Of a DNA stretch of 64,000 nt, positions 12,266 through 51,821 are shown in pieces. Source of the stretch: Ereboglobus luteus (GTDB lineage Bacteria > Verrucomicrobiota > Verrucomicrobiia > Opitutales > Opitutaceae); NCBI RefSeq assembly GCF_003096195.1, contig NZ_CP023004.1, positions 37,299-101,298 of the forward strand, in the 5' to 3' direction. Both the position numbers and the translations under genes were made by a program. Within the stretch, counting starts at the first letter, position 1. Every line of letters begins with the position of its first letter. Below the pieces are notes generated by a model that had not been told where the DNA came from, did not search any database, and was given only the letters and a program-made list of their open reading frames with translations.

Positions 12266-12325
12266 GGTAGGGCGAACCGTCTCGGTGAGCCGAAAATATT
12301 GCGACTCACCGAGACGGTTCGCCCC
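12266..12325. repeat. REP-like hairpin, GGTAGGGCGAACCGTCTCGGTGAGCCG..CGACTCACCGAGACGGTTCGCCCC (~22-bp stem), downstream of the ThuA-HEAT gene.
   Basis: One of three copies with conserved ends GGTAGGGCGAA / TTCGCCC. Confidence 0.6.
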
Positions 12326-12461
12326 GCCAAAAGGCATCCCCCCGCCGCGCCAAGTTAAATCAACGCATCTCTAAGCACACCTGGGTCAATGGGATTTTCC
12401 CACGCCGCCAGCACTCCATTCAGGTTGCCCTATTTTATATTTTGTCCAACGACTCATAAAT

Positions 12462-12537
12462 TGGAGGCGCGGGCCGGAATCGAACCGGCGCATAGAGGTT
12501 TTGCAGACCTCGGCCTTACCACTTGGCTACCGCGCCC
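12462..12537 (-). tRNA. tRNA-Cys (anticodon GCA), 76 nt including CCA.
   Basis: Reverse complement GGGCGCGGTAGCCAAGTGGTAAGGCCGAGGTCTGCAAAACCTCTATGCGCCGGTTCGATTCCGGCCCGCGCCTCCA; 7-bp acceptor stem, GTTCGATTCC T-arm, anticodon loop CTGCAAA. Confidence 0.9.
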
Positions 12538-12998
12538 ATCTCAGTCTTATTCAGTGCTTTCCATATACGCTCATTCTATTTCTGCTCATTTCACACCGAT
12601 AGTTCGCACTTTCGGTGCATGCGCAGGAAAAAAATGAAACGCTGGAAAAGAACCAATGCGGCAACTCTGTGGCAAGCTGCCTCGACTGGCGGGCATTGCG
12701 CCCGCGTGAAGGGGAACGGAAAAGAAAAGTGACGCTGCCTCAAGACTAAACTTTCATCTGGTGCGAAATTACATCCCGCGGTTCCGATTACCGAGGCGAT
12801 TGCCATCACCAAAACACCGCCTGCCGCCGCGTCCTTTGCCCGACACAATTCCCATGCCCGCTCCGCGCGAGCAAACCGCGTTTTCCGCTGTTGACCGAGT
12901 CCCCCAAACACCTAGTTTTCACAGTTTCGCACATCAATAAAACTGAACCATTTGACACAAGCTGCAGTCTCACCCATCGGCAAACGATTCGTTCATCC

Positions 12999-14108
12999 AT
13001 GATATTTACCCGTTTTCACGCAACCAGTCTCCCTGCCGCCGCGCTCGCGGCGATCCTTTGCACAACTGCAGCATCCCCCAACCTCGGCGCCCAGTCGCCG
13101 TCGCTCCTTGATCCCGGTGCCGGCTCGATGTCGCTGGTTCCGGACATGCCCGCTCCCGCGCCCCAGCAGGCTGAACCCGCCGCGCCTCAGGAAATGGATC
13201 TTCGCCTTCAAAACGCCATCGTCGCCGTCGTCGAGGAGAAGGCGATCACGATGGACGACATCCGCCGCGAAATCACCCCCCTCCTCCCCCAGATCATACG
13301 CGAATCGACGAGCGAGCAGGATTACCTAAACAAAATCCAGGCGCTTCAGGACGACATTGTGCAAAACCACATTGATCGCGCCCTCATCGTAAAGGAATTC
13401 TACAAGGAAAAAGACGGCGAGCCCGTGAAAAGCATTCCCGCCAGCTACATCGACAACCAGCTTGAGGAAATCATCATCACGCAATACGACAACGACCGCT
13501 CAAAGTTCCTCGCCTACCTGCGCGCCAAGGGCCAGACCATCCGCGAATTCCGCAAGGAAATCGAGGAGGACATGATCAACGGCTACATGCGCCAGCAGCA
13601 ACGCAAGAGCCAGAGCGTCGTCAGCCCCGTGAAAGTCGAAACCTTCTACCGCGAAAACAAGGACAGGTTTTATCAAGACGACCAAGTCCACCTCCGCCTC
13701 ATCCAGTTCACGCGCAACAACCAGACCGACGGCGAGCTCATCTCCAAGGCAAACGATGTGGTCAATCGCATGAAAAACGGCGAGAAATTCGAGGACATCG
13801 CCAAGGAGGTCAGCCAGGACACTCGCCGCAGCAAGGGCGGCGACTGGGGCTGGCAAAAACGCAGCGATCTCAAGGCCGAGCTCAGCGAGCCGCTCTTCAA
13901 GTTGCAAAAAGGCGAGGTCACCGAACCGATTCTCATGCCCGAGGGCGCGTTTCTCATGTATGTCGAGGATCGCAAATACGCCGGCATCCAGCCCATCGAC
14001 GAGGTCCGCGACCAGATCGAGCGCATCGTCCTCCAGCAAATGGCCCGCGCCAGCCAGGAGCAGTGGCTCGAACGCCTCCGCCGCAACGGCTACATAAAAT
14101 ATTTTTAA
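12999..14108 (+). CDS. SurA-like chaperone / PpiC-type (parvulin) peptidyl-prolyl isomerase, secreted.
   Basis: Signal peptide MIFTRFHATSLPAAALAAILC; SurA N-domain-like region; parvulin motif KGGDWGWQKRSDL..PLFKLQKGEVTEPI. Confidence 0.7.
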   Translation: MIFTRFHATSLPAAALAAILCTTAASPNLGAQSPSLLDPGAGSMSLVPDMPAPAPQQAEPAAPQEMDLRLQNAIVAVVEEKAITMDDIRREITPLLPQIIRESTSEQDYLNKIQALQDDIVQNHIDRALIVKEFYKEKDGEPVKSIPASYIDNQLEEIIITQYDNDRSKFLAYLRAKGQTIREFRKEIEEDMINGYMRQQQRKSQSVVSPVKVETFYRENKDRFYQDDQVHLRLIQFTRNNQTDGELISKANDVVNRMKNGEKFEDIAKEVSQDTRRSKGGDWGWQKRSDLKAELSEPLFKLQKGEVTEPILMPEGAFLMYVEDRKYAGIQPIDEVRDQIERIVLQQMARASQEQWLERLRRNGYIKYF

Positions 14109-14142
14109 CAGGCGCCCGCCACTTGAACCCCAGTCTGATCGT

Positions 14143-14173
14143 AAGGGCGGCATCACAGCCGCCCTTGTTTTTT
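14143..14173 (+). terminator. Rho-independent terminator after the SurA-like gene.
   Basis: AAGGGCGGC-ATCACA-GCCGCCCTT followed by GTTTTTT. Confidence 0.6.
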
Positions 14174-14303
14174 GCCCCGTGTTTTCCTTGCTGAAAATTT
14201 TGCCCCGGCGCCCCCGAAAAAGTCTCAATCGCCCCGACACACACGCGCAATCGCGCCGCCTTTATTTGCCTTTTTCAAACAAATCCGCACATTGCGCTCC
14301 ATC

Positions 14304-14684
14304 ATGATTAAAAAACTTCTCCACACGCGGATGCGCGTGAACGACATCGAAAAAACAGTTCGCTTTTACGTCGACGTGCTTGGGCTCAAGGTCTCCGCCG
14401 ACACCGTTTCGCCGCGCGGCGCGCGCCTTGTTTTTATCCGGACACCCAACAGCGACGAGGAGATCGAGCTCTGCCAGTTGCCGAACAGCGAACCCGTCAG
14501 CGTGCAACCCGACCTCATGCATCTCGCGTTTCAAGTGGACGACCTCGCCGCCTTCGCTTCCGGGCTTGAAAAGAAGGGCGTCAAGCTAAGCGACGGTCCG
14601 ACCAAAACCATCGATGGCGACCTGATCGCATTCATCGACGCCCCCGAAGGCTACGAGGTGGAATTGATTCAAAAGACCCGGTAA
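14304..14684 (+). CDS. VOC/glyoxalase I family protein.
   Basis: MIKKLLHTRMRVNDIEKTVRFYVDVLGLK..HLAFQVDD..GYEVELIQ, typical lactoylglutathione lyase fold motifs. Confidence 0.7.
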   Translation: MIKKLLHTRMRVNDIEKTVRFYVDVLGLKVSADTVSPRGARLVFIRTPNSDEEIELCQLPNSEPVSVQPDLMHLAFQVDDLAAFASGLEKKGVKLSDGPTKTIDGDLIAFIDAPEGYEVELIQKTR

Positions 14685-14800
14685 AACGCGAAACTGCGTT
14701 TTGCGCGGACCGCTTTCGCGAGGGCAAGCGCCCGTCTTCTATCTTCGCGCATCACGCCATTGACCGCGCGGGCAACGTTCTTTTTTCTCTCAGGTTTTTC

Positions 14801-16687
14801 ATGCTCACTCTGGCCGACGTTTCCAAATCCTACGGCACGCGCGAACTCTTCAGCGACGTGTCGCTCTTCATTGCGCGCACCGACCGCCTCGGCCTCGTCG
14901 GCGCCAATGGCGCCGGCAAAACCACGCTCTTCAACCTCATCCTCGGCGAGGAGTGCGCCGACACCGGCACCATCGAATGGGAGCGCGGCGCCGACTTCGG
15001 TTTTCTCCCGCAGGAAAGCGCGCCCGTCGGCGACGAGACCATCCTCGAAATCGCCACCAGCGGCAAACAACTCGAACCGACCGAGGACAACTGGGACATC
15101 GACTACACGCTCGAACCGCGCGCCAAGCGCATCCTCGCCGGCCTCGGCTTCCGCGAGGGCGACCACCACAAGCAGGCGAAAACATTTTCCGGCGGCTGGG
15201 TCATGCGTGCCCACCTCGCGCGCCTCCTCGTCTCCGAACCCTCGCTCCTCCTCCTCGACGAACCCACCAACCACCTCGACCTCGAGGCGCTGCTCTGGTT
15301 TCAGGATTACCTCACGCGCTACCCCGGCGGCCTCGTCGTCATCTCGCACGACCGCGCGTTCCTCAACGCCCTCTGCACCGGCATCCTCGAACTGCGCGCC
15401 GGCACGCTCCACTACTACCACGGCAACTACGACAACTACGTCACCGAAAAGGAGGCGCGCAAAGCCCAGCAGGCCGCCCTCTACAAAAACCAGCAGCGCG
15501 AAATCGCCCACTTGCAGGAATTCGTGGACCGCTTCGGCGCCAAGGCCACCCTCGCCTCGCGCGCCAAGTCCAAGGAAAAACAAATCGCCCGCCTCAAGGA
15601 GGAGGCCATCGAGGAACCGCTCGACGAACTCAAGCGCATCAACTTCCGCTTTCCCCAGCCCGCGCGCTCCGGCCTGAAAGTCGTCGAGCTGAAGGACGTT
15701 TACCAAGCCTACGGCGACCATGTCGTGTATCGCGGCGACCTCGAATTCATGGCCGAGCGCGGCCAGCGCATCGTGCTCGTCGGCCCCAACGGCGCGGGCA
15801 AATCCACGCTCCTCAAAATCCTCGCCGACGTCATCCCGATCCAGGGCGGCACGCGCGAACTCGGCGCAAACGTCACCGCCGGTTATTTCGCGCAAAACCG
15901 CCTCGACACCCTGCGCGCCGACGCGACCGTCTTCGACAACGTCATGGAGCTGCGCACCGCCGAGAACCAGCTCACCGAGCAACAAGTGCGCGCCATCCTC
16001 GGCGCGTTCCTCTTCCGCAAGGACGACGTTTTCAAAAAAGTTTCCGTGCTCTCCGGCGGTGAAAAATCGCGACTCGCCCTCGCGCGCCTGCTCGTCAACC
16101 CGCCCAACCTCCTCCTCATGGACGAGCCGACGACGCACCTCGACATCCCCTCGATCGACGCGCTCATCGGCGCGCTGAAAAACTACGCGGGCACGCTCAT
16201 CTTCATCAGTCACGACGTGTATTTCATCAAGCAAATCGCTCAGCACGTCCTCCACATCAACGCCGGCCGCCTCACGCCCTACGCGGGCGATTACGATTAT
16301 TATTTGGAAAAATCCAAGGCCACCGACGCCCGCGCCGCGCTCACCACGGCCGGCTTCACCAACGCCCGCCCGCCGCAGGAAAAACAATCCGCCGCCGCCA
16401 CGGGAGCGTCGCAAACGGCTCCCGCCGCCGCACCGGCCAAACCCAGGCTCACCGCCAACCAGCTCCGCAAACTGCGCGAGGAAGTTGGCCAGTTGGAGAA
16501 ATATGTCTCCGAACTTGAGTCGCAGCAAAACCAGCTCACCGCCGAGCTCGAGGCGCCCGAAACCTACAACACGCCCGGCAAGGCGCAGCAGTTGAACCGC
16601 GACCTGTCGAGTGTCGTTGACCGCCTCCAAGCCGCCACCGCCGACTGGGAGGCCGCCGCCACCCGCCTGCTCGAAGCCGAGGGCTGA
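14801..16687 (+). CDS. ABC-F family ATPase (two ABC domains, no TMD; Uup/EttA-like) with C-terminal coiled coil.
   Basis: Two Walker A sites (GANGAGKTT, GPNGAGKST), two signatures (FSGGWVMRAHLA, LSGGEKSRLALA), inter-domain linker, C-terminal QLRKLREEVGQLEKYVSELESQQNQL. Confidence 0.85.
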   Translation: MLTLADVSKSYGTRELFSDVSLFIARTDRLGLVGANGAGKTTLFNLILGEECADTGTIEWERGADFGFLPQESAPVGDETILEIATSGKQLEPTEDNWDIDYTLEPRAKRILAGLGFREGDHHKQAKTFSGGWVMRAHLARLLVSEPSLLLLDEPTNHLDLEALLWFQDYLTRYPGGLVVISHDRAFLNALCTGILELRAGTLHYYHGNYDNYVTEKEARKAQQAALYKNQQREIAHLQEFVDRFGAKATLASRAKSKEKQIARLKEEAIEEPLDELKRINFRFPQPARSGLKVVELKDVYQAYGDHVVYRGDLEFMAERGQRIVLVGPNGAGKSTLLKILADVIPIQGGTRELGANVTAGYFAQNRLDTLRADATVFDNVMELRTAENQLTEQQVRAILGAFLFRKDDVFKKVSVLSGGEKSRLALARLLVNPPNLLLMDEPTTHLDIPSIDALIGALKNYAGTLIFISHDVYFIKQIAQHVLHINAGRLTPYAGDYDYYLEKSKATDARAALTTAGFTNARPPQEKQSAAATGASQTAPAAAPAKPRLTANQLRKLREEVGQLEKYVSELESQQNQLTAELEAPETYNTPGKAQQLNRDLSSVVDRLQAATADWEAAATRLLEAEG

Positions 16688-16779
16688 TGAATCAACGATA
16701 ACCGAGGGAACATGCGGAAAACTCTTTTCGTCATTTTTCCACTTGCCCGTCCCGCCGCGTTGCCAAGCATTTCCGCCCC

Positions 16780-17601
16780 GTGCTGCCAGAAACCGACTAT
16801 CGCATAAAACTTCCCGCCTTCGAAGGCCCGCTCGATCTCCTCCTTTTCCTGATCAAGAAAAACGAAATCGACATCTACGACATACCCATCGAGTCGGTCA
16901 CGCGCCAGTATATCGACGTCATTCACTCGCTCAAGGAGCTCGACCTCGAAATCGCCGGCGACTTTTTCGTGATGGCCGCCACGCTCATGGAAATCAAAAG
17001 CCGCATGCTCCTGCCCAAGGGCGAGCATGCCGTCGATCCCAACGCCTCCGACGACGACGCCATCGACCCGCGCTACGAACTCGTCCACCAACTCCTCCAA
17101 TACAAAAAGTTCAAGGAGGCCGCGCAGGAATTGCAGGGTCTCGCCACCTTCAACCACGACAAGCTCCCGCGCATCGTCAAATCCGACGCACCCGACGAAA
17201 GCGACCGTCCCCTCAAAAACGTCGACCGCATCGAACTCTGGAACGCGTTCAACATCATCCTGCGCCGCCTCGCCGAAAAACTCGTTGTCGGCGAAATCAA
17301 GGACGAGCAAATCACCGTGGCCGACCAGATGGAACACATCCTCGAGCGCATCCGCACCGAAAAGTCCTTCATATTTTCGAATCTTTTCCCCGGCAAAACC
17401 ACGCTTCGCACGCTCGTCGCCACCTTCATCGCCGTCCTCGAGCTCACGCGCCTGCACAAGCTGCGCATCAGCCAAAACGAAGCCTACTCCGACATCCTCT
17501 GCACGGCGGTCGAGGACGAGCCGGACGCCACATCCACCGGGCAGTCCGCGGAAAACTTCACCTCGGAGTTCGACGCGCCTCCCGGGGATGAGACCGCCTG
17601 A
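16780..17601 (+). CDS. scpA: Segregation and condensation protein A (ScpA).
   Basis: LPAFEGPLDLLLFLIKKNEIDIYDIPI..EIAGDFFVMAATLMEIKSRMLLP. Confidence 0.85.
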   Translation: MLPETDYRIKLPAFEGPLDLLLFLIKKNEIDIYDIPIESVTRQYIDVIHSLKELDLEIAGDFFVMAATLMEIKSRMLLPKGEHAVDPNASDDDAIDPRYELVHQLLQYKKFKEAAQELQGLATFNHDKLPRIVKSDAPDESDRPLKNVDRIELWNAFNIILRRLAEKLVVGEIKDEQITVADQMEHILERIRTEKSFIFSNLFPGKTTLRTLVATFIAVLELTRLHKLRISQNEAYSDILCTAVEDEPDATSTGQSAENFTSEFDAPPGDETA

Positions 17602-17611
17602 GGAATAACCG

Positions 17612-17672
17612 CGAAGAGGCGCAAAAAAATCATCGGCCGCCTTTATCTTTGCGCCTTTTGTGCTTTTTTGTG
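17612..17672 (+). terminator. Hairpin plus T-rich tract after scpA.
   Basis: AGGCGCAAA..TTTGCGCCT then TTTGTGCTTTTTTG. Confidence 0.35.
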
Positions 17673-18293: not shown

Positions 18294-18296
18294 ATC

Positions 18297-18617
18297 ATGT
18301 CCGCCAACATTGCCGATCTCACCGCCGACACTTTCAAAACCGCCATCGCCAACGGCCTCGTTCTCATCGATCTCTGGGCTCCTTGGTGCGGTCCCTGCAA
18401 GGCCATGGCGCCCATCCTTGACGAACTCGCCACCGACCTTGAGGGCAAGGTGACAATCGCCAAGCTCAACATCGACGACCACGGCGCCGTCGCCGCCGAA
18501 TACAACGTCCGCGCGATTCCCACTTTCCTTCTCTTCAAGGACGGCAAACTCATCGACACCGTCGTCGGCATGCAATCCAAGGGCAGCTTCATCGCAAAGC
18601 TGCAGCCGCACTTCTGA
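18297..18617 (+). CDS. trxA: Thioredoxin.
   Basis: WAPWCGPCK active site, 106 aa. Confidence 0.9.
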   Translation: MSANIADLTADTFKTAIANGLVLIDLWAPWCGPCKAMAPILDELATDLEGKVTIAKLNIDDHGAVAAEYNVRAIPTFLLFKDGKLIDTVVGMQSKGSFIAKLQPHF

Positions 18618-18629: not shown

Positions 18630-18696
18630 GGTAGGGCGAACCGTCACGGTGAGCCGCAGCAACACACCCGGCTCACCGTGACGGTTCGCCCCTATC
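18630..18696. repeat. REP-like hairpin, GGTAGGGCGAACCGTCACGGTGAGCCG-loop-CGGCTCACCGTGACGGTTCGCCCC (perfect 23-bp stem), between the convergent trxA and coaD.
   Basis: Differs from copy 12266 by a compensated T/A to A/T pair in the stem. Confidence 0.6.
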
Positions 18697-18775: not shown

Positions 18776-19255
18776 TTAACCTTGGTAGGCTTTTTTCAAC
18801 GCCGCGCCGACATTGTCGGGCACGAAATGGCTCACGTCGCCGTTGTAGCGCGCCACTTGCTTGATCAGGTTTGAACTCGTGAAACTGTAGGCGCCGCGCG
18901 GCATCACGAACAGCGTCTCGATGGCCGGCTGCAGGTGCCGGTTCATGAGCGCCATGTTGAACTCGAACTCGAAATCCGAAAGCGCGCGCAACCCGCGGAT
19001 AATCGCCGTCGCCTTTTGAGACAGGGCAAAATCGACCAGCAGGCCGTCGAAGATTTGCACGTCCACGTTTTTCAAGTTGGCGATGTTGGGGCGGATCATC
19101 TCGACGCGCTCCTCGACCGTGAAGAGCGGCCCCTTGCCCTCGTTGCTTGCCACCGCCATCGTCACGCGGTCAAAAAGCCGCGACGCGCGCGCGAGCACGT
19201 CGAGGTGCCCGTAGGTGACTGGATCAAAGGTGCCCGGATAGATGCAGTGTTGCAT
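18776..19255 (-). CDS. coaD: Phosphopantetheine adenylyltransferase.
   Basis: IYPGTFDPVTYGHLD nucleotidyltransferase motif, 159 aa. Confidence 0.9.
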   Translation of the reverse strand: MQHCIYPGTFDPVTYGHLDVLARASRLFDRVTMAVASNEGKGPLFTVEERVEMIRPNIANLKNVDVQIFDGLLVDFALSQKATAIIRGLRALSDFEFEFNMALMNRHLQPAIETLFVMPRGAYSFTSSNLIKQVARYNGDVSHFVPDNVGAALKKAYQG

Positions 19256-39013: not shown

Positions 39014-39900
39014 GCGAAATCCCGGGCCCAATCGACGACTACTGGCAAACACTCCCCCTCGGGCGCGGCGTGGCCGTCATCACCCGCGATCCCAACGGCC
39101 TCGTCGCCCTCAACAAACCCGCGGGCACCCTCTCCCACCCCAACGAATCCCGCGACCAGCCCCGTTCGCTCCTCAACGCCCCCTATGAACCCGACGGCGA
39201 ATATTATATGTGGAATGCGGAATGCGGAATGCGGATTTCGGAATTGCAAACCGACAAAACTGATCATGCCACTCGCCCGCCGCCTGCGTCCGATCATTCC
39301 GCATTCCAAAATCCGCATTCCACATTCAAAGAGGAATCCCGCCGACTCTGGCTGCTCAACCGCCTTGATTCCGCCACCTCCGGCGTGATCCTTGCCGCGA
39401 CCACGGAAGAACTCGCGCGCGAAATCCGCGCGCTCTTTCGCGAACGCCACATCAGCAAAACCTACGCCGCGCTCGTCTTCGGCAGCCCCTCCGAAAAAAC
39501 GCAACTCTGGCGCGACCGGCTCGCCGTGCAAAAACGCGGAGGCCAAATCCGCGCCGCCGCCCGGGCCGGAAACATCCCCGCCGAGGCGCGCATGAGCCTT
39601 CTGCGCACCAGCCGCAACACCCCCGCCGCAGCAGGCGCACCCATTTCGCTCATCCAGCTCGAACCCAAGACCGGACGCAGCCACCAGCTCCGGGTGCAAT
39701 GCGCCAGGCGCCGTCTTCCCATCATCGGCGACGCCACTTACGGCGATTTTCGAGCCAACCGCGACTTCGCCAAACGCACACGCGAAAAACGCCTATTTCT
39801 CCATTCGCTCGAAACCCGCTTCGACTACACCCACGCCGGACGCGCGTTCACCTTCGCCGCCAAGGCTGACCTCCCTGGGGCGTTCACCGCGCATCTTTGA
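39010..39900 (+). CDS. RluA-family pseudouridine synthase (GTG start overlapping the upstream stop, GTGA) carrying an in-frame palindromic-element insertion (39207-39333).
   Basis: LNKPAGTLSHP..RLDSATSGVILAA..catalytic Asp in LNRLD; PsiRSP-like C-terminus. Inserted ~42 aa (YYMWNAECGMRISELQTDKTD..HSTFKEES) lies in the loop before the HRLD motif. Confidence 0.8.
   Translation: MSEIPGPIDDYWQTLPLGRGVAVITRDPNGLVALNKPAGTLSHPNESRDQPRSLLNAPYEPDGEYYMWNAECGMRISELQTDKTDHATRPPPASDHSAFQNPHSTFKEESRRLWLLNRLDSATSGVILAATTEELAREIRALFRERHISKTYAALVFGSPSEKTQLWRDRLAVQKRGGQIRAAARAGNIPAEARMSLLRTSRNTPAAAGAPISLIQLEPKTGRSHQLRVQCARRRLPIIGDATYGDFRANRDFAKRTREKRLFLHSLETRFDYTHAGRAFTFAAKADLPGAFTAHL
39207..39333. repeat. Palindromic element (GGAATGC heptad arms; core ..CACTCGCCCGCCGCCTGCGTCCGATC) inserted in-frame in the RluA-family gene.
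   Basis: TGGAATGCGGAATGCGGAATGCGGATTTCGGAATTGCAAA ... ATTCCGCATTCCAAAATCCGCATTCCACATTCAAAG; the core shares CGCCTGCGTCCGAT with element 2944-3057. Confidence 0.7.
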
Positions 39901-42320: not shown

Positions 42321-42497
42321 AGCAGTGAGCGGCGGGTAGCGAGTAGTGAGTAGAAAAAATCACCGCTCGCCCCGCTCGCAACCAACCTTAAAAATTTTCA
42401 CAACCATCACACCATCCTCCCACCACCATGCGGGCGCAGCCCGCCACTGACATCCTACTCGCTACCCGCTACTCACTACTCGCTACTTTTTCTTCCT
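42321..42497. repeat. Palindromic element (AGTGAGC/AGCGAGT/AGTGAGT heptad arms) filling the pheS-pheT intergenic region; the right arm ends 3 nt before the pheT ATG.
   Basis: GCAGTGAGCGGCGGGTAGCGAGTAGTGAGTAGAAAAAA ... CTACTCGCTACCCGCTACTCACTACTCGCTACTTTTTCTTCC. Confidence 0.65.
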
Positions 42498-42500: not shown

Positions 42501-44996
42501 ATGAAAATCTCCCTCTCCTGGCTCAACGACTACGTCGATCTCTCCGGCATCGCCACCGACGAAATCTCCCGCGCCATCACCTTTCTCGGCCTTGAAGTCG
42601 AGGAGGTCATCAACACCGGCGCGCCCCAGTTCAACAACGTCGTTGTCGGGCGCATCCTCACACGCGACAAACACCCCAACGCCGACAAGCTCTCCCTCTG
42701 CACCGTCGATGTCGGCCCCGCCGGCGGCGTGAAGACAATCGTCTGCGGCGCGCCCAACTGCGACGCGGGCAACCTCGTTCCCGTCGCGCTCCCCGGCGCC
42801 ATCCTCCCCGGCAATTTCGAAATCAAACAATCCAAAATCCGCGGCCAGTCCTCCGACGGCATGATGTGCTCGTCCAAGGAACTCGCGCTCGAGGGCGGCG
42901 ACCACGCCGGCCTCATGATCCTCGCCACCCCCGCGACGGAAACCCCGCCCGCCCTCGGCACTCCCATCAACGACATTCTTCCCCCGGGCGACATCGTTTT
43001 CGACATCGAAGTCACACCCAACCGCCCCGACTGCCTCAGCCACATCGGCATCGCGCGCGAACTCTCCGCGTGGTTCAAAAAACCGCTCCGGTATCCGGAA
43101 ATCAAATACGATCCGCGCAACACACGCGCCCCCTTTGCCGCCTTCGCCGCGCGCCCCGACCTGCTCGAATCCATCCGCGTCGACGCGCCCGAGATGTGCC
43201 CGCTCTACACCGCCACCGTCATCACCGGCATCAAGATCGGCCCCAGCCCCGAGTGGATGCAACGCCGTCTCCTCGCCGCGGGCATGCGCCCGATCAGCAA
43301 CATCGTCGACATCTCCAATTACGTGATGCTCGAATACGGCCAGCCCACGCACGCCTTCGACGCGAAAAAAATCGGCGGGCACAAACTCATCATCCGCCCG
43401 GCCAACGAGGGTGAAAAAATCATCACCCTCGACGAAAAGGAGCGCGCGCTCAGCAGTCGCATGCTCGTCATCGCCGACGCCGAGAAACCGCTCGTCATCG
43501 CCGGTGTCATGGGCGGCGAAAACTCGGGCATCGACGACACCACGACCGACATCATTCTCGAGGCCGCCAGTTTCGCGCGCAGCCTCATCCGCTGGACATC
43601 GCGCCGCCTCGGACTCTCCTCCGACTCATCCTACCGTTACGAACGCGGCGTCGATCCGCACATGCTCGACGAAGCCACGCGCCGCGCCATCTCGCTCATC
43701 CTTGAGCTCTGCGGCGGGCAAGTCGCCGGCGCCACGCACAAGGCCGGGGGCGACGTCCCCTGGCAACGCGAGGTTCAAGTCACCGCGTCCTTTGTGAACG
43801 AACGCGTCGGCTTCGAAATCCCCGTCGCCGAGCAACGCGCCGCGCTCGAGGCGCTCGAGCTTCGAATCACACGCGAGGATAAAAACGCCCCCGGCGGCCC
43901 CGCATGGACGGTTGCCATCCCGAGCTGGCGCAACGACCTCGACCGTCCCATCGACCTCGTCGAGGACGTCCTTCGTGTTTACGGCACGGAAAAAATCCCC
44001 CCCGCGCCCGTGCTCGCGCCGACGATCATCGGCAACGACGCCCCCATCGTGCTCTTCAACCGCGAAGTTTCCGCATACCTTGTCGGCCAGGGTTTCAACG
44101 AATGCGTGAACTACACGCTGCGCTCCAAGCGCGAAGTCGAGACGTGGGTTTCACAAGCCGCCGGGGCCGAGCTTGCGCTCCTTAATCCCTTCACCGAGGA
44201 CCAGTCGCACCTTCGCCCCACCCTCGTGCTCGGACTCCTCGAAACGCTCAAACTCAACCAATCGCGTGGCGTGCCGACGGCGCGCCTCTTTGAAACCGGG
44301 CGTGTCTTCATCGAGCGCGACGGACAAAACTTCGAGTGTGTTTCGGTCGCCTTCATCATTGCCGAAAACGACCTCGACCGCGCCTGGCTCAAGCGCGAGC
44401 CCGCCGACTTCTACACGACAAAACGCCTCGTCGAAACCCTCGCCGGCATCGGCGGCATCGACATTGCCCGCCAGCCCGTGAAAGCGCCCGGCGGTTCGTT
44501 CTTCGGATGGCAGGAAGGCCAGTCCGCCATCATCGGCGACATCGCCCACGGCTGGACCGCGCGCCTCGGCCTGATCAACCTCGCCATGGTTCGCAGCCTC
44601 GGCATCGAGGGCAAGGTCTACGGCGGCACGCTCTCGATTCTCTCCGAGCGCGTCAAAACCGTCTCCGACCGCCGCCGCTATCAACCCATCACGATGCACC
44701 CCGCCGCGCTCCGCGACATCGCGCTCGTGGTCGATGAAAAGCTCCCCGCCGGCGACGCGCAAAAAACACTGGCCAAGCACGCCCGCGCCACGCTGCCGAA
44801 AACCTTTGCGCTCGAAGCCGCGAACATCTTCGACGTCTACCAAGGCAAGGGCCTGCCCGAGGGCAAAAAAAGCCTCGCGTTCAGCCTCGTCTATCGCGCC
44901 CCCGACCGCACCCTCACCGACGACGAAGTCAACACCGCCTTCGCCAAGCTTCAGGAAATCCTCGCCAAGGAAACCGACTGGCAGATCAGAAAGTAG
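42501..44996 (+). CDS. pheT: Phenylalanine--tRNA ligase beta subunit.
   Basis: MKISLSWLNDYVDL; tRNA-binding, B3/4, B5, FDX-ACB domains; 831 aa. Confidence 0.95.
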   Translation: MKISLSWLNDYVDLSGIATDEISRAITFLGLEVEEVINTGAPQFNNVVVGRILTRDKHPNADKLSLCTVDVGPAGGVKTIVCGAPNCDAGNLVPVALPGAILPGNFEIKQSKIRGQSSDGMMCSSKELALEGGDHAGLMILATPATETPPALGTPINDILPPGDIVFDIEVTPNRPDCLSHIGIARELSAWFKKPLRYPEIKYDPRNTRAPFAAFAARPDLLESIRVDAPEMCPLYTATVITGIKIGPSPEWMQRRLLAAGMRPISNIVDISNYVMLEYGQPTHAFDAKKIGGHKLIIRPANEGEKIITLDEKERALSSRMLVIADAEKPLVIAGVMGGENSGIDDTTTDIILEAASFARSLIRWTSRRLGLSSDSSYRYERGVDPHMLDEATRRAISLILELCGGQVAGATHKAGGDVPWQREVQVTASFVNERVGFEIPVAEQRAALEALELRITREDKNAPGGPAWTVAIPSWRNDLDRPIDLVEDVLRVYGTEKIPPAPVLAPTIIGNDAPIVLFNREVSAYLVGQGFNECVNYTLRSKREVETWVSQAAGAELALLNPFTEDQSHLRPTLVLGLLETLKLNQSRGVPTARLFETGRVFIERDGQNFECVSVAFIIAENDLDRAWLKREPADFYTTKRLVETLAGIGGIDIARQPVKAPGGSFFGWQEGQSAIIGDIAHGWTARLGLINLAMVRSLGIEGKVYGGTLSILSERVKTVSDRRRYQPITMHPAALRDIALVVDEKLPAGDAQKTLAKHARATLPKTFALEAANIFDVYQGKGLPEGKKSLAFSLVYRAPDRTLTDDEVNTAFAKLQEILAKETDWQIRK

Positions 44997-46270: not shown

Positions 46271-46453
46271 ATGAAAATATTATATACTGTCTTGCTGTTC
46301 ATATTTGGTGCGGTGCCAATGATGCGGGCGGACTGGAGTTTATTGAGGAATGACGACGGACAGATTGTGGAGGTCGCAATCGACTTCACTATTGAGAAGA
46401 AAACAGAAACCTCGGACGGTGGCATTTCGTTAGTAGTGAGTTCCGAAAAATGA
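46271..46453 (+). CDS. Small hypothetical protein with signal peptide (AT-rich islet).
   Basis: ORF only; MKILYTVLLFIFGAVPMMRA signal-like N-terminus. Confidence 0.2.
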   Translation: MKILYTVLLFIFGAVPMMRADWSLLRNDDGQIVEVAIDFTIEKKTETSDGGISLVVSSEK

Positions 46454-46610
46454 AGGTCAAACCTACGGGTTTTCCGCGGAGATTTTAAAACCCCGTGACT
46501 CCGAAACCTTAGCGAAAAGAAAGAGGGATCGTCGGCCCATTACGAGAAGCAGCATAATTATCACATCCACGGGCGAATCTACAAAATCCCTCGAAAAGAA
46601 ACTCAATCAC

Positions 46611-46901
46611 TTGCTTAACATGCAGGATGATTCCGAAGCGCCGACTCGCGTTGCAGGTTTGTATTCTGCGGTATCGCCTGCGGCGTCTTTTTCAACACCC
46701 TCGCTCTTTGATGCCGTGGATATCGGAATTGTTTTCGATCATGAGGGGAAACAGGTGAACGCCCGCGGTTTTCACATTAAAATATTCATGGATATTCCCA
46801 TGAATCGCTTTACTGTGTATTTTTCAGAACGAGGAGGCATAGGAGGAACTTCCGAGGCCACACGAACACGGATGAAGAAATACCCGAATAAGAAGTCATA
46901 A
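46611..46901 (+). CDS. Hypothetical protein (AT-rich islet).
   Basis: ORF only. Confidence 0.2.
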   Translation: MLNMQDDSEAPTRVAGLYSAVSPAASFSTPSLFDAVDIGIVFDHEGKQVNARGFHIKIFMDIPMNRFTVYFSERGGIGGTSEATRTRMKKYPNKKS

Positions 46902-47008
46902 CCAAAGCGAGCAAACGATAGTCCAGCAAAGTGGTCTTGGCAAACCCGACGGCGCACTCGTGGCGTCAGCCTCGCTGATCAAACAGGCAAACTTGGCAGT
47001 CCGCGCTA

Positions 47009-47030
47009 CAAAAAAACGGCGTCCGTTTTA
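47009..47030 (-). terminator. Terminator after pnp (minus strand; symmetric A7-ACGG-CGT-CCGT-T4, so potentially bidirectional).
   Basis: Minus strand reads AAAACGGACGCCGTTTTTTT. Confidence 0.55.
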
Positions 47031-47076
47031 TGGGACACCGTTGAGTGTTTGTGAATGTTGATGACCTTTCCGCTGC

Positions 47077-49290
47077 TTAGCTGGCCGGGGTTTCCGGAGC
47101 GGCGGGAGGAGGCGTGTCGGCGGCGGGTGCGGCTTCGCCGTTGGCGGCTTGCTGCTGGGTTTCCATTTCCTTCATCGCGGCTTTGCGCGAGAGGCGGACT
47201 TTGCCGGAGCGCTCGTCGATGCCGATGCACTTGACCCACATTTCGTCACCGACTTTGCAGACGTCCTCGGTGCGGCGCACGCGGAAATCAGCGAGTTCGC
47301 TGATGTGCACGAGGCCTTCCTTGCCGGGGATGCATTCGACAAAGGCGCCGAATTCTTTCGTGCCTTTCACGACGCCGCGGTAGAGCTTGCCGACTTCGAT
47401 TTGCGCGCCACCGCCGCAGAGGATGTCGATTTCCTGGATGGCGCGGGCCATCGAGTCGGCGTTGTTCGAGTAGATGAAGACCTTGCCGGAGTCGTCCTCG
47501 GCGATGTCGATTTGCGCGCCGGTGGTCTCGACGATGCGACGGATGGTCTTGCCGCCCGGGCCGATGAGGAGGCCGATGTTGTCCGGATCGATCTGGATGG
47601 TCTGGATGCGCGGCGCGTAGGTGCTGAGCTGGGCGCGGGGCGCGGGGATCGAGGCGAGCATGACTTTCAGGATTTCAATGCGCGCGTCGCGGGCCTGATA
47701 GATGGCTTTCTTGGCGATCTCGAAGGGGAGGCCGTTGATCTTGAGGTCGAGCTGGAAGCCGGTGATGCCGGTGGTGGTGCCGGCGAGCTTGAAGTCCATG
47801 TCGCCGAAGTGATCTTCCTCGCCGAGGATGTCGGTGACGGTGACCCATTTGGAGATCGAGCCGTCATCGGCGTTCTCGGTCATGAGGCCGCAGGAGATGC
47901 CGGCGACGGGCGCGATGATGGGCACGCCGGCGTCCATGAGCGAGAGGCAGCCGCCGCAGATGGAGGCCATCGAGGTGGAGCCGTTGGAGGCCATGATGTC
48001 GGAGACGACGCGGATCGAATACGGGAAGACGTCCTCGGGCGGGAGCACGGGAACGAGGGAGCGCTCGGCGAGCGCGCCGTGGCCGACTTCGCGGCGGCCG
48101 GGGCTGCCGAAGCGGCCGGTTTCGCCGACGGAATACGGCGGGAAGTTGTAGTGGAGGATGAACGATTTCGACTTGGCGCCGCCGGTGAGGGCGTCGAGGT
48201 CCTGGGCTTCCTTGGTGGGGCCGAGGGTGGTGGTGACGATGGTCTGGGTGTCGCCGCGCTTGAACATGGCGGAGCCGTGCACGCGGGGGAGGATGCCGGC
48301 CTCGGCGGCGATGGGGCGCAGCGAGGTCGAGTCGCGTCCGTCGGCGCGGGTGCCGCGTTCGAGAACGGCCTTGCGGTAGGCGCTGTATTGGAGGTCTTCG
48401 AAGACGATGCCGATGTCGTGGTCCGCGAAATTGCCTTCGCCGAGCTCGGCGGTGAGGGCGGCTTTGCACTCCTCCTTGAGGGCGGCGACGTTGGCGGAGC
48501 GAACTTGTTTTTCCTTGCCGAAGATGGCGTCAACGATCTTGGGGGCGGCGATGCGCTCGACGATGGCGCGGGCCTCGGGCTTGGCGGAGACGAGCGGGTA
48601 TTCGCGCTTGGGTTTGCCGGCGATGGAGACGAGCTGCTTGATTCCGGCGATGATGGGCTGGATGGCCTTGTGCGCAAATTCGAGCGCCTCGATGAAGCGG
48701 TCCTCGGGGAGCTGCGCGGCGGAGCCCTCGATCATGAGCATGTCTTTTTCGGTGCCGACGTAGATGAGGTCGAGGTCGGACGAATACATTTGCTCGATGG
48801 TGGGGTTGGCGACGAACTGGCCGTCGATCTGGCCGACGCGCACGGCGCCGATGGGGCCGGACCAGGGAATGTCGGAGATGGCGAGCGCGGCGCTGGCGCC
48901 GTTGACCATGGAGATGTCGGCGTCGTTGATTTGGTCGGCGGAGAGGAGCAGGCCGATGACCTGCACTTCATTGAGGAAGCCGGCGGGAAAGAGCGGACGG
49001 CAGGGGCGGTCGCAAAGGCGCGAGGTGAGGATTTCCTTTTCGGAGGGGCGGCCTTCGCGCTTGAAATAACCCCCGGGGAAACGTCCTGCGGCGGAATATT
49101 TTTCGCGGTAATCGACTGTGAGCGGGAAGAAGTCCTGGCCGGGCTTGATGTTTTCGGCGGCGGTGGCGGCGACGAAGAGCGTGGTTTCGCCGACTTGGAC
49201 GGTGACCGCGCCGTTGGCGAGGTGCGCGAGCGAGCCGGTGCCAAAGGTGATGCCGAGCTCGGGGACTGTGACTGTGTGTTTTTGATTCAT
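47077..49290 (-). CDS. pnp: Polyribonucleotide nucleotidyltransferase (PNPase); start at MNQKHTVTV (the upstream part of the ORF is element sequence).
   Basis: Two RNase PH domains, KH, S1 ([11 protein letters not shown]), 737 aa. Confidence 0.95.
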
Positions 49291-49482
49291 GTTCGTATTT
49301 TGGATTTTGTATTCTCGATTTTGGATTGATGAACCACGGAAGATAATTCGAGAGGGTATTGATGGTTTCCGGGTTTTGTTTTTTAACCGCGAATGGACGC
49401 TAAAGGACGCGAATAAATACAAATGAAACACGGGTCGAAAATCGGCCTGTTATTCGCGTCTATTCGCGTTCGTTCGCGGTTC
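49291..49482. repeat. Composite element in the rpsO-pnp intergenic/pnp leader: CCAAAAT-heptad arm abutting the pnp ATG (49291-49328), plus a palindrome with CGCGAAT-type arms and core AAATGAAACACGGG (49387-49482).
   Basis: CCGCGAATGGACGCTAAAGGACGCGAATAAATAC-AAATGAAACAC..-TTATTCGCGTCTATTCGCGTTCGTTCGCGGTTC; both arm types are also found in the uvrA linker 2152-2278. Confidence 0.55.
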
Positions 49483-49694
49483 TAAATCTCTGACTGGTTT
49501 TTATTATGGGCAAAAACTCGCGGACAATGGTGTTCGCGTTGCTTTTGCCGGGAGGTGTCTTTTTTGCATCCTCGTTCAGTGTTCGAGAGATTTCCGTTTG
49601 GCGCCTGCGCTGTTTTTTGCGGCGGAAGAGACAAGCGGAAATGTCCCGGAATCTGTGGCGAGTGTCGTTGGCTGCGCGGGGCAGTTAAGACAAC

Positions 49695-49719
49695 GGGCGA
49701 CCCGCGGATCGGGTCGCCC
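49695..49719 (-). terminator. Hairpin after rpsO (rpsO terminator / pnp leader structure).
   Basis: GGGCGACCCG-CGGATC-GGGTCGCCC ~20 nt past the rpsO stop. Confidence 0.5.
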
Positions 49720-49737
49720 GTGTGCTGAAAAGAGTGG

Positions 49738-50001
49738 TTAGCGACGGAGGCTGAGCCTTTGCAGCATCTCGTTATACTTGGGCAGATCGTTGCGCTTCAA
49801 GTAATCGAGGAGTTTGCGGCGGCGGCTGGCCATCTGGAGAAGGCCGCGGCGGCTGTGGAAGTCCTTGCGATGCGTGCGCAGATGCTCGGTCAAGTGATTG
49901 ATGCGAGCGGTGAGCAACGCGATCTGGACTTCGGAAGAGCCGGTGTCCTTCTCGTGTGTTTTGAACTGACTGATGATTTCTGGTTTTACTACTGTTGACA
50001 T
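49738..50001 (-). CDS. rpsO: 30S ribosomal protein S15.
   Basis: [48 protein letters not shown]. Confidence 0.9.
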
Positions 50002-50384
50002 GTGGTTTTGTGGTTTTGAACTGCACGACCGTAGGGGCGCCTTGTTGAAGGGCGTCCGCGCAACCCGCTCCTGCCTGCGAAGTTGTGAGACAACGCGGGC
50101 GTTTGCCGGTGGCACCGTTCCAATCCGGCGGGATGCCGGACCGGTCATGGTGGGAATCCGCAACCGACGGACTTCCACTAACGCAAGCCGCGATATATCT
50201 AGGAGCGCGCAAGGCGGCGCAAGAAGAATTTACGCAAATCCTCACGGAGTCGACCTCGCGAATGCCCCCACCCTTTCCCAAAAAATTCGATAGGACCCAA
50301 AACACACTCATCGTCACCACCCAAACCTTTGTCCGGAAAAACGCAGGGAACCCCACACACACGCATTGTGCGCGCATCGAATGC

Positions 50385-51821
50385 TCACTTTGCGATCAGC
50401 TTTATCAGCGCGGCGCGGTCGGTTTTGCCGCGCTGGGTGAGCGGGAATGCCGGCAGCACAACAATGCGGTCGGGGATTTTCCACGCGGCGAGACGCGGGG
50501 TGAGCTGGCGGCGGATGTCGGCGGCGGTCGGCGAGGGCGCGTCGCTGGCGACGGCGGCGGCGATGGCGTCGGGGCGCGTTGGATGCGCGGCGACAAAGGC
50601 TTCGCGCACACCGGGCAGGGCGCGGAGCATCGTTTCCACTTCGCCGGGGTCGAGACGGCGGCCCGCGATTTTCAGCGTGCGTCCGGCACGGCCAAGCAGG
50701 GTGAGTTCGCCGGCAGGGTTGAATTCACCGCGATCGGGCGGCGAATAGCGTCCGCGTCCGTGGACAGAGGGGCTTTCGACGGTGAAGCGTTTGCCGCGGC
50801 GGAAGGTGATGCGCACGCCGTCGATGAGTTGCCCGATGGCGCGGCCAGTTTCCGCGGCGTCGCCTTTGCGGTCGTAGGCGATGCCGCCGGTTTCGCTGGT
50901 GCCGTAGAAATTGTGGACGTGTTTGCCGTATTTGTTTGCGAAAGCGAGCGCGTCGGCGGGCTGGAGCGGCGCGCCGGCGGAAATGACGAGGCGCAGGCTG
51001 GCGAGCGCGGCGGGCGAAACGTCGGTGCTTGAGAGCGCGCGCAGGAGCGTGGGCACGGCGGGAAAAACGGTCGGTTTCCAACGGGCGCAATCGGCGGCGA
51101 TGGATTGCGGAAACGGGCTGGCGGCGCTGAGGAGGGGCGTGCCTTGTTCGAGGAGCGGAATGACGAGGTGGCCGAGTCCGTAGGAGTGCCCGAAGGGGAT
51201 GATGCCAAGGTTGAGGTCGCCGGGGCTGATGCGCATGGTTGCGCAAATCTGGCGTCCGTCGGCGAGCATTTGCGTGTGGGTGAAAACGAGCGCCTTGGGA
51301 ACGCCGGTGCTGCCGCTGGTGAGTTTGATGAGCAATTCGTCGCGGCGTCGAACGGGCGGGCGAGGCGCGAGCAGGGTGAGTTCACCGTCGCGCAAGATCG
51401 AGGCAGCGCGGCTGACGTCGGCAATGGCGGCAAGGCGGTCGGGTGTTTCCTTGGAGTCGGCGAGCGCGGGGACAGCACCGATTTCGAGCAGACCGAGGAA
51501 GATGTAAAACCAGCGCGCGCTGTTCGGCTCGGCCATGACCACGCGGCGACGCGTGATGTGCGCGCGGGTGTCGGTGGGAAGTGAATCGAGCCAGACACGT
51601 GCGGCGGCGGCGAGTTCAGCGCGACTCCAGACGCGCGCGGTGTCGCCGTCGATGACGGCGGTGGCGGATGGCGATTGCGCGACAAGTGCGCGCCAGGTGG
51701 CGAGGAGGTTTGTTGGGTAGGGCGAAACCTCCGGCTGAGCCGATTGCTTTTTCGCGTTCGGTGACAATTCCGGCTCAGCCGGAGGCTTCGCCCTACCTTT
51801 GGTATCGCCGACCGGAGCCAT
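50385..51821 (-). CDS. AMP-dependent synthetase/ligase (acyl-/aryl-CoA ligase family); start ATG overlaps the gatB stop (TAATG). Its 5' end contains a GGTAGGGCGAA-family hairpin in-frame.
   Basis: AMP-binding motifs LTSGSTGVPKA, YGTSETGG, ..GDxxxxxxDG..; 478 aa. Confidence 0.75.
   Translation of the reverse strand: MAPVGDTKGRAKPPAEPELSPNAKKQSAQPEVSPYPTNLLATWRALVAQSPSATAVIDGDTARVWSRAELAAAARVWLDSLPTDTRAHITRRRVVMAEPNSARWFYIFLGLLEIGAVPALADSKETPDRLAAIADVSRAASILRDGELTLLAPRPPVRRRDELLIKLTSGSTGVPKALVFTHTQMLADGRQICATMRISPGDLNLGIIPFGHSYGLGHLVIPLLEQGTPLLSAASPFPQSIAADCARWKPTVFPAVPTLLRALSSTDVSPAALASLRLVISAGAPLQPADALAFANKYGKHVHNFYGTSETGGIAYDRKGDAAETGRAIGQLIDGVRITFRRGKRFTVESPSVHGRGRYSPPDRGEFNPAGELTLLGRAGRTLKIAGRRLDPGEVETMLRALPGVREAFVAAHPTRPDAIAAAVASDAPSPTAADIRRQLTPRLAAWKIPDRIVVLPAFPLTQRGKTDRAALIKLIAK
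51715..51797. repeat. REP-like hairpin, variant GGGTAGGGCGAAACCTCCGGCTGAGCCG-loop-CGGCTCAGCCGGAGGCTTCGCCCTACC, lying within the 5' coding region of the AMP-ligase gene (translated in-frame).
   Basis: Same conserved termini as copies 12266 and 18630; the stem interior differs on both sides so pairing is kept. Confidence 0.6.

Follow-up and report, generated by a model that had tools for sequence, protein, structure and literature searches.

Three long hairpins of Ereboglobus luteus as probable inverted doublets of a GTAG-tagged repetitive extragenic palindrome

Known palindromic repeats and the hairpins of the window

Repetitive extragenic palindromes (REPs) have been sorted by their GTAG or CGTC tags, and the same account describes dimers that fold into larger structures and that lie mainly between convergent or unidirectional open reading frames (ORFs) but also within genes (Di Nocera et al., 2013; PMC3733652). 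The same source calls Opitutus terrae "highly enriched in GTAG repeats", and its supplement lists about 70 intragenic REPs for this bacterium, several of them at N-termini. REP doublets that form hairpins (REPINs) were defined by Bertels and Rainey (2011; PMC3116915), who described frequent compensatory changes between the two sides of the hairpin in Pseudomonas fluorescens. Binding and cleavage by the transposase TnpA_REP require the 5' GTAG tag and a mismatch in the stem (Messing et al., 2012; PMC3479197). Here, we analyzed a stretch of 64,000 nucleotides (nt) from Ereboglobus luteus, a member of the Opitutaceae (contig NZ_CP023004.1, positions 37,299 to 101,298), which we refer to as the window. 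It contains three long hairpins that, taking the evidence as a whole, are very probably REPINs, i.e., inverted doublets of a GTAG-type REP spread by a REP-associated tyrosine transposase (RAYT).

With the GTAG-17 to GTAG-20 repeats of O. terrae (PMC3733652), the elements studied here share the host family, the short palindromes with an unpaired GTAG (or GTGG) tag, the head-to-head dimers with larger hairpins, and a location mostly between convergent or unidirectional ORFs. They also share in-frame intragenic copies, including some at N-termini (e.g., Oter_4632, residues 1-15), and RAYT "REPtrons" flanked by the repeats. The peptides encoded by the REPs differ (VAGVADPG, VGPALAAG, and GTGVPPV/HGRDARAT among those listed for O. 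terrae; GRAKPPAEP and AQPEVSPY here), and the unit consensus is therefore set apart from that of O. terrae, insofar as the listed peptides reflect it. Moreover, the O. terrae repeats were described from one species, whereas the Ereboglobus-type family is common to several classes. GTAG REPs, many of them inside genes, are already reported for O. terrae, and this basic picture is unchanged by our analysis. The kind of element is well described while the sequence family itself is undescribed; a full-text literature search with the string GTAGGGCGA returned unrelated primer sequences only.

The three hairpins are located at 12266-12328 (copy 1), 18630-18696 (copy 2), and 51716-51797 (copy 3), where an initial annotation made from the sequence alone had placed them. 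A repeat finder delimited inverted-repeat arms of 26, 23, and 27 nt in copies 1, 2, and 3 that are 92, 100, and 96% complementary, respectively. The folding energies of the copies as RNA lie between -50 and -64 kcal/mol (z-scores between -9.7 and -11.9); of 200 shuffled sequences, not one folded as well. Exact copies of GGTAGGGCGAA occur four times in the window, at 12266 (+), 18630 (+), 51716 (+), and 51787 (-), with copy 3 carrying the motif on both strands. All left arms possess a second block, TGAGCCG, at a constant distance from the first, which yields the pattern GGTAGGGCGAA-N9-TGAGCCG. A fifth match to GGTAGGGCGAA, at 44212 (-) and with one mismatch, lies without a hairpin inside pheT and was discarded as a chance occurrence.

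Some features ascribed to the hairpins by the initial annotation require qualification. The termini said to be common to all copies are indeed found in the left arms, but the right arms of copies 1 and 2 lack the GTAG tag (they read GGCG and GATAG-G), so that the tag is present on four of the six arms and copy 3 is the only one of the three with symmetric termini. Copy 3 had been described as perfectly paired; it contains one A.C mismatch when the + strand is read, which corresponds to a G.U pair on the mRNA (-) strand. The compensated base pair that distinguishes copies 1 and 2 is real (T12282-A12312 in copy 1 versus A18646-T18679 in copy 2). It is a single instance (n = 1) and sits in the loop of the REP unit described below. 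Selection on the REPIN hairpin fits this pair because compensatory changes have been reported as common in REPINs (PMC3116915), and descent of the two copies from different symmetric masters fits it equally well.

The REP unit, its doublets, and their distribution

Each hairpin arm is a 27-nt unit of the form G-GTAG-GGCGA-N4-TCC(C)-N4'-GAGCC-G. The supposedly variable N9 segment of GGTAGGGCGAA-N9-TGAGCCG is itself palindromic, N4 being complementary to N4'; further out, GGC pairs with GCC, and GA stands opposite AG. The unit hairpin has nine stem positions, made up of three G-C pairs, a tandem G.A/A.G mismatch, and four covarying pairs, and is closed by a loop of 3-4 nt; the GTAG tag remains unpaired at its 5' foot. 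We built the covariation model that the initial annotation had proposed, using an alignment of 49 distinct units. Given the structure ....(((..((((....))))..))), 98% of the cells in this alignment are paired, and the inner stem of the unit covaries, with double-sided changes in four pairs. The inner-stem variants include ACCG/CGGT, ACCC/GGGT, ATCC/GGAT, AGCC/GGCT, GGCG/CGCC, GTCG/CGAC, and GTTC/GAAC. None of 500 shuffles reached the observed score, and slid controls were only 21-47% paired.

Over 194 units, the inner stem contains 745 Watson-Crick, 22 G.T, 2 A.C, and 7 other combinations, and the preponderance of G.T over A.C pairs marks the GTAG-bearing strand as the folding strand. The flanks beyond G(-1) and G(+1) carry zero information across 185 units; hence, the ends of the unit are sharp. 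A few copies display a longer 5' flank (GCCTTT..GGTAG); it was rejected since it is not conserved over the same 185 units. Folded as DNA, a single unit adopts the small hairpin with GGTAG unpaired as its minimum-energy structure, and unit 1a, the left arm of copy 1, folds as predicted in this way. The tandem mismatch (GGCGA...GAGCC) is present in every matched unit, an invariance that is in part imposed by the search pattern. Among the partner arms, which are free of this pattern, 46 end in CTACC, i.e., GGTAG on the other strand, and the tag variants GGTGG (6), GGCAG (4), and GGCGG (2) were also recorded. The unit thus possesses the attributes by which REPs are recognized: a short palindromic stem-loop (25-27 nt), an unpaired 5' tag, and an imperfect stem. 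A covariance model (R1) detects six units in the window, four canonical arms scoring 39-43 bits and two degenerate partner arms scoring 19-27 bits, and no others at E < 0.01.

The initial annotation had seen in the hairpins a signature of "selection on structure, not sequence". Structure does covary, but it does so as the 9-bp hairpin within each arm (98-99% paired); the long hairpin lacks the same covariation, and the GTAGGGCGA...GAGCC core is conserved across the phylum as sequence. The long hairpins are accounted for as inverted doublets of the unit, and all three copies of the window fit this architecture, with spacers of 9, 12, and 28 nt in copies 1, 2, and 3. In other loci, we found 40 canonical doublets whose spacers measure 0-121 nt. 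The arms of 38 of them have differing interiors, the typical heterodimer combining A-CCG-TCC-CGG-T with G-GCG-TCCC-CGC-C. The same eight positions are paired to 98.8% inside an arm versus 63% between the arms, that is, in the long hairpin. About 28% of the left arms have no partner inside 170 nt. Since the doublets of the family are mostly heterodimeric, the perfect homodimers of the window are a local peculiarity. Metagenomes scanned for homodimeric REPINs of the ACCG type gave only three matches, with unit loops that are complementary in two and not complementary in the third.

In comparison with the REPINs of P. fluorescens, our elements share the combination of two inverted REPs with a short variable spacer, the presumed replicative unit, and the single-copy RAYT (PMC3116915); they differ in that the arms mostly belong to different subtypes, the interior of the long hairpin is paired to 63%, and perfect homodimers are exceptional. 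A tandem arrangement was observed in a metagenome-assembled genome (MAG) of the Verrucomicrobia (locus L035, positions 43-380), where at least four near-identical REPIN-like units of about 104 nt follow each other. In each of them, a GGTAGGGCGAAGCGTCTCGCTGAGCCG arm is combined with a divergent partner (...TTCGCGCCACC).

When genomes, one for each species, were scanned for exact occurrences of the pattern GGTAGGGCGAA-N9-TGAGCCG (18 specified bases), at least 120 contig stretches were recovered; they belong to about 70 species-level assemblies, nearly all of them from the Verrucomicrobiota sensu lato. The carriers among the Opitutae are Lacunisphaera, Opitutus, Didemnitutus, Oleiharenicola, and Puniceicoccales; the motif is also present in Verrucomicrobiales, Akkermansiaceae, Chthoniobacterales, Spartobacteria, Kiritimatiellia, Lentisphaerae, and Victivallales. 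Among the matches listed, several MAGs are each represented by 5-8 separate motif-bearing contigs. A single match, from Dehalococcoidales, is without the internal palindrome and seems to be accidental. A scan of viral contigs yielded two matches, without a RAYT, and gave no sign of carriage by phages.

RAYT genes and the weighing of explanations

Seven loci in other genomes carry a RAYT gene that is flanked by inverted copies of the unit. The motif led to four of them (L025, L024, L100, and L087) and the protein to the other three (L125, L126, and L127). In locus L025, an ORF of about 156 residues begins 19 nt after a unit, and its product contains the HUH motif (PDHLH) and the sequence HYVRMNPV. 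This protein scores 83 bits against the NCBIfam model NF047646, "REP-associated tyrosine transposase" (cutoff 80), and aligns with E. coli TnpA_REP (PDB 4ER8; E = 1.7e-10) such that the HUH motif, the catalytic Tyr115, and Asn119 of the NP motif coincide. Searches by tblastn revealed homologs in L024, L100, and L087, each located between inverted units. In the reverse test, four RAYT homologs were picked by protein similarity alone; three of these (L125, L126, and L127) have GTAGGGCGA units on both sides, whereas the fourth (L124; 53% identity) is flanked instead by a related GTAG-GGACGGCCA REP. All four proteins from L124 to L127 exceed the NF047646 cutoff, and the RAYTs that pass it span 83-106 bits.

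The RAYT genes occupy recurrent positions in their hosts: between mpl and a radical-SAM/TRAM gene in L100, L125, and L126, and in an ars/thioredoxin cluster in L024, L025, and L127. In three Opitutae, GTAGGGCGA REP units or REPINs are also inserted in frame within mpl, which encodes a Mur ligase (L100, about 1139-1213; L125, 1327-1401; L126, 1262-1286); the position of this insertion is conserved, and it adjoins the RAYT locus. The RAYT gene of L024 (7221-7773, from a Victivallales MAG) seems to be frameshifted near its 5' end since tblastn returns two pieces in different frames, and its longest ORF scores 76.6 bits against NF047646 (cutoff 80) and 25.4 bits against Pfam Y1_Tnp. Judged from these features of its sequence, this gene may be decaying.

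REPIN-RAYT systems have been studied nearly exclusively in Proteobacteria, and a 14-nt core found across several classes, together with conserved RAYT loci and heterodimeric doublets, bears on the persistence of such elements and on their recognition by the transposase. The unit resembles the E. coli REP (a constituent of bacterial interspersed mosaic elements, BIMEs) in having both the 5' GTAG tag and, above it, an imperfect hairpin with mismatches (PMC3479197). The similarity extends to the homologous protein (RayT; 4ER8; E = 1.7e-10), whose gene is likewise flanked by REPs. The sequence of the stem is different, and a bulge in E. coli contrasts with the tandem G.A/A.G mismatch of our unit. 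Furthermore, the E. coli REP is confined to enterobacteria as opposed to the phylum-wide core found here, and the present family is known from sequence alone.

We infer RAYT-mediated mobilization by analogy to TnpA_REP of E. coli. A single-copy RAYT of the HUH/Y1 type would bind the unit hairpin together with its GTAG tag on single-stranded DNA, and would cut and rejoin the DNA so that REPs and REPINs spread around the chromosome. The family is common to the Verrucomicrobiota, including Kiritimatiellia and Lentisphaeria. Two REPINs of the window landed between the 3' ends of convergent genes, where transcribed copies probably act as RNA hairpins. The third landed at the junction of gatB and a ligase gene and overwrote the start codon of the latter; the ligase would now begin at the ATG overlapping the gatB stop codon, or at a TTG in the REPIN loop, and the REPIN codons would constitute a dispensable N-terminal extension.

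The hairpins might instead be RNA elements maintained by selection on the host (terminators lacking a U tract, 3' stabilizers, or a cis-regulatory hairpin of the ligase gene) to which the RAYT association is incidental. We regard this as improbable, although several observations agree with it. Copies 1 and 2 are positioned exactly between convergent 3' ends, copy 2 at a distance of only 12 nt from the trxA stop codon; the hairpins are highly stable as RNA; and the REPIN within the ligase gene has changed at 1 of 82 nt compared with a dS of 0.086 elsewhere in the gene. The strand-specific folding (22 G.T to 2 A.C pairs) would also suit an RNA, but it is also expected of single-stranded DNA that is recognized by a Y1 transposase. 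Against an RNA element as the primary identity, units are found in either orientation; about 28% of the left arms are singletons, tandem arrays exist (L035), and some units lie within coding sequence. The conserved part, moreover, is a weak 9-bp unit hairpin with an unpaired GTAG rather than the stable long hairpin. RAYT genes are situated between units at seven independent loci. Rfam, searched with the window at gathering thresholds, passed tRNA-Cys only, so that the hairpins match no RNA family known to it; at permissive E-values, they gave solely sub-threshold hits to generic hairpin models, those of eukaryotic miRNA precursors (20-42 bits, with thresholds of 45-168). RNA roles are compatible with the REPIN explanation and could be secondary uses of the elements.

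Two alternatives invoke other mobile elements, and both appear very unlikely to us. With their inverted termini, variable center, and size of 60-85 bp, the doublets are reminiscent of miniature inverted-repeat transposable elements (MITEs) derived from a classical DDE insertion sequence, with GGTAGGGCGAA... serving as the terminal inverted repeat. However, neither target-site duplications nor flanking direct repeats were detected at the three copies, the flanks are unconserved past one G on each side, and single arms, each endowed with its own covarying internal hairpin, are common. The sole transposase gene seen beside the units encodes a Y1 HUH RAYT, and no DDE enzyme or related DDE insertion sequence was found there. 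The hairpins could also be the ends or remnants of an element of the IS200/IS605 family (TnpA/TnpB). This origin, equally unlikely, would be in keeping with the Y1 HUH nature of the associated protein and its weak matches to Pfam Y1_Tnp and an IS200 model; a subterminal imperfect hairpin with a 5' guide tetranucleotide is also part of the IS200/IS605 design (PMC3479197). The proteins nevertheless surpass the RAYT cutoff (83-106 bits versus 80) while scoring about 20 bits against the IS200 model (cutoff 55). Their genes reside at conserved host positions and are not multicopy and scattered, the flanking units are inverted and not direct, no tnpB was seen, and the window doublets enclose just 9-28 nt. 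Chance palindromes or unrelated gene-specific hairpins, for which the low number of three copies in the window might speak, can practically be dismissed in view of four exact 11-mers (about one expected even with one mismatch allowed), fold z-scores of about -10, and the recurrence of the same 18 specified bases in related phyla (at least 120 contig stretches).

Several points weigh against the interpretation of the hairpins as RAYT-spread REPINs. Only three REPINs are visible, from a window of 64 kb. Neither the window nor locus L122 (16 kb of Ereboglobus sp. PH5-10) contains a RAYT gene detectable by tblastn, and mpl and rimO, the neighbors of the Opitutae RAYT, are absent from the window. 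The long hairpin is perfect in Ereboglobus, unlike in most genomes, and the doublet may behave differently in this genus. The hairpin of a lone unit has little thermodynamic stability (-5 to -7 kcal/mol as DNA; z of about -1.2); the support for it is covariation, not folding energy. In about 70% of the units, the search pattern itself prescribed A-T at the outermost of the four covarying inner pairs (10/21), which inflates the value for that pair. In addition, no protein named Ereboglobus is among the best 120 matches of the RAYT protein searches. As neither the window nor the 16 kb of PH5-10 has a RAYT gene, an active RAYT partner in Ereboglobus is only putative.

A more far-reaching synthesis, which we put forward as possible but rather doubtful in its entirety, would join these data into an ancient, phylum-wide, and mostly vertically inherited REPIN-RAYT partnership with a host takeover in Ereboglobus. 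It would encompass Opitutae, Verrucomicrobiae, Chthoniobacterales, Kiritimatiellia, and Lentisphaeria. RAYT recognition would have frozen the GTAGGGCGA...GAGCC core while the inner stem diversified by lineage alongside the RAYT; the transposase gene would be fixed at conserved loci (mpl/radical-SAM in Opitutae, ars/thioredoxin in Kiritimatiellia and Lentisphaeria), and heterodimeric REPINs with A and B arms would be the usual form. In Ereboglobus, a conserved enzyme would owe its start codon and N-terminus to a REPIN, and translation of the ligase would be forced to couple to gatB via a hairpin of -64 kcal/mol.

Host genes at the three REPINs and other features of the window

Table 1. Coordinates of the REP units and of the genes next to them (positions of the window)
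Feature	Position	Strand	Evidence and remarks
ThuA/HEAT-repeat protein gene	9523..12195	+	Pfam PF06283, PF13646
REP unit 1a, canonical, REPIN 1 left arm	12266..12292	+	GGTAGGGCGA-ACCG-TCT-CGGT-GAGCCG; R1 41.4 bits, E = 1.7e-10
REP unit 1b, degenerate, REPIN 1 right arm	12302..12328	-	GGCG-GGGCGA-ACCG-TCT-CGGT-GAGTCG; tag lost; R1 18.8 bits, E = 0.0014, model positions 4-25 only; part of inverted repeat I11
tRNA-Cys gene	12462..12536	-	ARAGORN, Rfam
Thioredoxin gene trxA	18297..18617	+	Pfam PF00085
REP unit 2a, canonical, REPIN 2 left arm	18630..18656	+	GGTAGGGCGA-ACCG-TCA-CGGT-GAGCCG; R1 41.2 bits
REP unit 2b, REPIN 2 right arm	18669..18696	-	degenerate tag GATAG-GGGCGA...; R1 26.8 bits, E = 5e-06, model positions 4-25; part of inverted repeat I13 (23 nt, 100% complementary)
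Phosphopantetheine adenylyltransferase-like gene coaD (CTP_transf_like)	18776..19255	-	Pfam PF01467
AMP-dependent ligase/acyl-CoA synthetase gene	50385..51821	-	Pfam PF00501, PF13193; AMP-binding domain from residue 47
REP unit 3a	51716..51742	+	GGTAGGGCGA-AACC-TCC-GGCT-GAGCCG, one A.C mismatch; R1 38.9 bits
REPIN 3 spacer (loop), 28 nt	51743..51770	.	sequence
REP unit 3b, canonical	51771..51797	-	GGTAGGGCGA-AGCC-TCC-GGCT-GAGCCG; R1 43 bits, E = 5e-11
gatB	51821..53290	-	GatB_N, GatB_Yqey domains in orthologous genes

REPINs 1 and 2 are both found at gene 3' ends between convergent genes, in agreement with the placement given in the initial annotation. REPIN 1 lies 70 nt past the stop codon of the ThuA/HEAT gene, with the 3' end of the tRNA-Cys gene on its other side, and REPIN 2 starts 12 nt past the stop codon of trxA and is followed by the 3' end of coaD (Table 1). 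Like intrinsic terminators, they are G+C-rich hairpins that follow stop codons of convergent genes; unlike these, they are devoid of a T/U tract. No T tract follows the stems on either strand, and a terminator scan called neither of the two, whereas canonical terminators with T tracts do occur in the window (e.g., 14141-14168, followed by TTTTTG). The earlier description of these copies as REP-like and not as intrinsic terminators is consequently upheld by the GTAG-tagged units, the missing T tract, and the RAYT genes flanked by units in relatives. By analogy with the REPs of enterobacteria, REPINs 1 and 2, once transcribed, are probably 3' hairpins that protect or pause the transcripts. For the annotation of genomes and MAGs of Verrucomicrobiota, the REP/REPIN identity prevents such hairpins from being taken for terminators, small RNAs, or unusual protein N-termini, and it accounts for recurrent spurious peptides, e.g., GRAKPPAEP and GSAGTPRPT.

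REPIN 3 lies in frame in the ORF of the ligase. The ATG of this ORF and the stop codon of gatB overlap as TAATG; the ORFs and their translation agree with the initial annotation on these points. The first 35 or so codons of the ligase gene consist of 8 junction codons followed by REPIN 3 (codons 9-35). Unit 3b encodes residues 9-17 (GRAKPPAEP), and unit 3a encodes residues 27-35, approximately (...SAQPEVSPY). Just two in-frame start codons precede the conserved N-terminus, namely the ATG at 51821 and, within the REPIN loop, a TTG (codon 19); no in-frame ATG, GTG, or TTG is present between the REPIN and the conserved N-terminus. The protein is 96% identical to a 478-amino-acid (aa) protein of Ereboglobus sp. 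PH5-10 that has the same N-terminus; this strain possesses the same REPIN insertion, and its annotated product likewise comprises 478 aa. By contrast, orthologs with 64-76% identity have 437-457 aa, start with MTP..LL.TWR, and are without residues 1-35 or so. The inspection of these N-termini, which the initial annotation had suggested as a check for conservation at the protein level, revealed that the segment is absent from them, so that the refuting condition named there did not arise.

When the ligase is aligned to its orthologs, the ancestral ATG falls within the terminus of the REPIN; the original start codon was thus lost through the insertion. The ratio of non-synonymous to synonymous substitution rates (dN/dS) between the strain studied here and PH5-10 is 0.23, which indicates that the ligase is functional, evolves under purifying selection, and is translated through at least one REPIN arm. 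Between the two strains, REPIN 3 differs at 1 of 82 nt, where about 7 changes would be expected under neutrality (dS of 0.086 elsewhere in the gene). From the arrangement of start codons, we infer that translation of the ligase begins at the upstream ATG or at the TTG in the loop. The gene offers a clean natural case in which a mobile hairpin has replaced a start codon and the gene has survived. Rickettsia palindromic elements (RPE) similarly lie in frame in coding genes that are still functional (cited in PMC3733652). These are longer, carry a CGTC tag, and come without a RAYT in the description given in that source; here, one of three copies is coding.

In relatives, the spacers between gatB and the ligase gene measure 240 and about 650 nt (L121, 2760-3000; L123, 2357-3000) and are full of other GTAG-tagged hairpins, e.g., GTAGGGCCTGACCTTGTGTCAGGCC and GTAGGGCGCGACCTTGCGTCGCGCC. 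The presence of these hairpins makes the gatB-ligase junction look like a recurrent landing site for REPs. A distinct REPtron is located beside gatB in an Opitutia MAG (L040), with doublets at 6335-6395 and 6917-6978 around an ORF at 6462-6929 whose product, a more distant RAYT homolog, falls short of the NF047646 cutoff of 80 with 72.8 bits. Its REPs read GTGG-AACGCATTGA-CCTC-AATGCGTT and GTGG-AGCGCGTTG-CTCC-CAACGCGCT. We considered this RAYT as a link to copy 3 and rejected it, as the flanking REP is a different one (GTGG-AACGCATTGA...); the position common to both is either a coincidence or a shared insertion hot spot.

A second class of hairpins, unrelated in sequence to the REPs, is also present in the window. 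These have two inverted arms, 30-110 nt apart, each built from 3-5 tandem units of about 7 nt. They occur at 915-1046, about 1779-1880, about 2155-2280, 2940-3068, 3455-3562, 5843-5974, 39199-39327, 42321-42480, 49380-49486, and 55286-55381. The heptamers vary by element and include GAAGAGT/TTCACCC, GGAATGC/GCATTCC, CCAGAGG/CCTCTGG, CACGGAG/CTCCGTG, GCGAGTA/CTACTCG, and CGCGAAT/ATTCGCG. Similar heptamer arrays are found beside REP singletons in other Verrucomicrobiota (e.g., L012, L015, L016, L041, L048, L050, and L075). To the best of our knowledge, no described family matches these heptamer-arm hairpins.

Five of the heptamer-arm hairpins lie in frame within a giant UvrA-like gene (30-4123, +; matches to ABC_tran and UvrA_inter) and are translated as linkers rich in K, S, Q, and P. 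This gene is split: its first ORF (30-2924) and its second (2831-4123) use different frames, and a perfect palindrome of 22 bp (2901-2945) is situated at their junction. UvrA genes of O. terrae are also among those listed with intragenic REPs in the cited supplement (PMC3733652). Finally, the strand composition of the window changes along its length. The GC skew ranges from -0.17 to -0.28 over 1-44 kb, with an AT skew of about +0.15, and the two skews amount to +0.2 and -0.1, respectively, at 48-56 kb. The switch near 44-48 kb coincides with a change of the coding strand and could correspond to a replication origin or terminus or merely to gene orientation.

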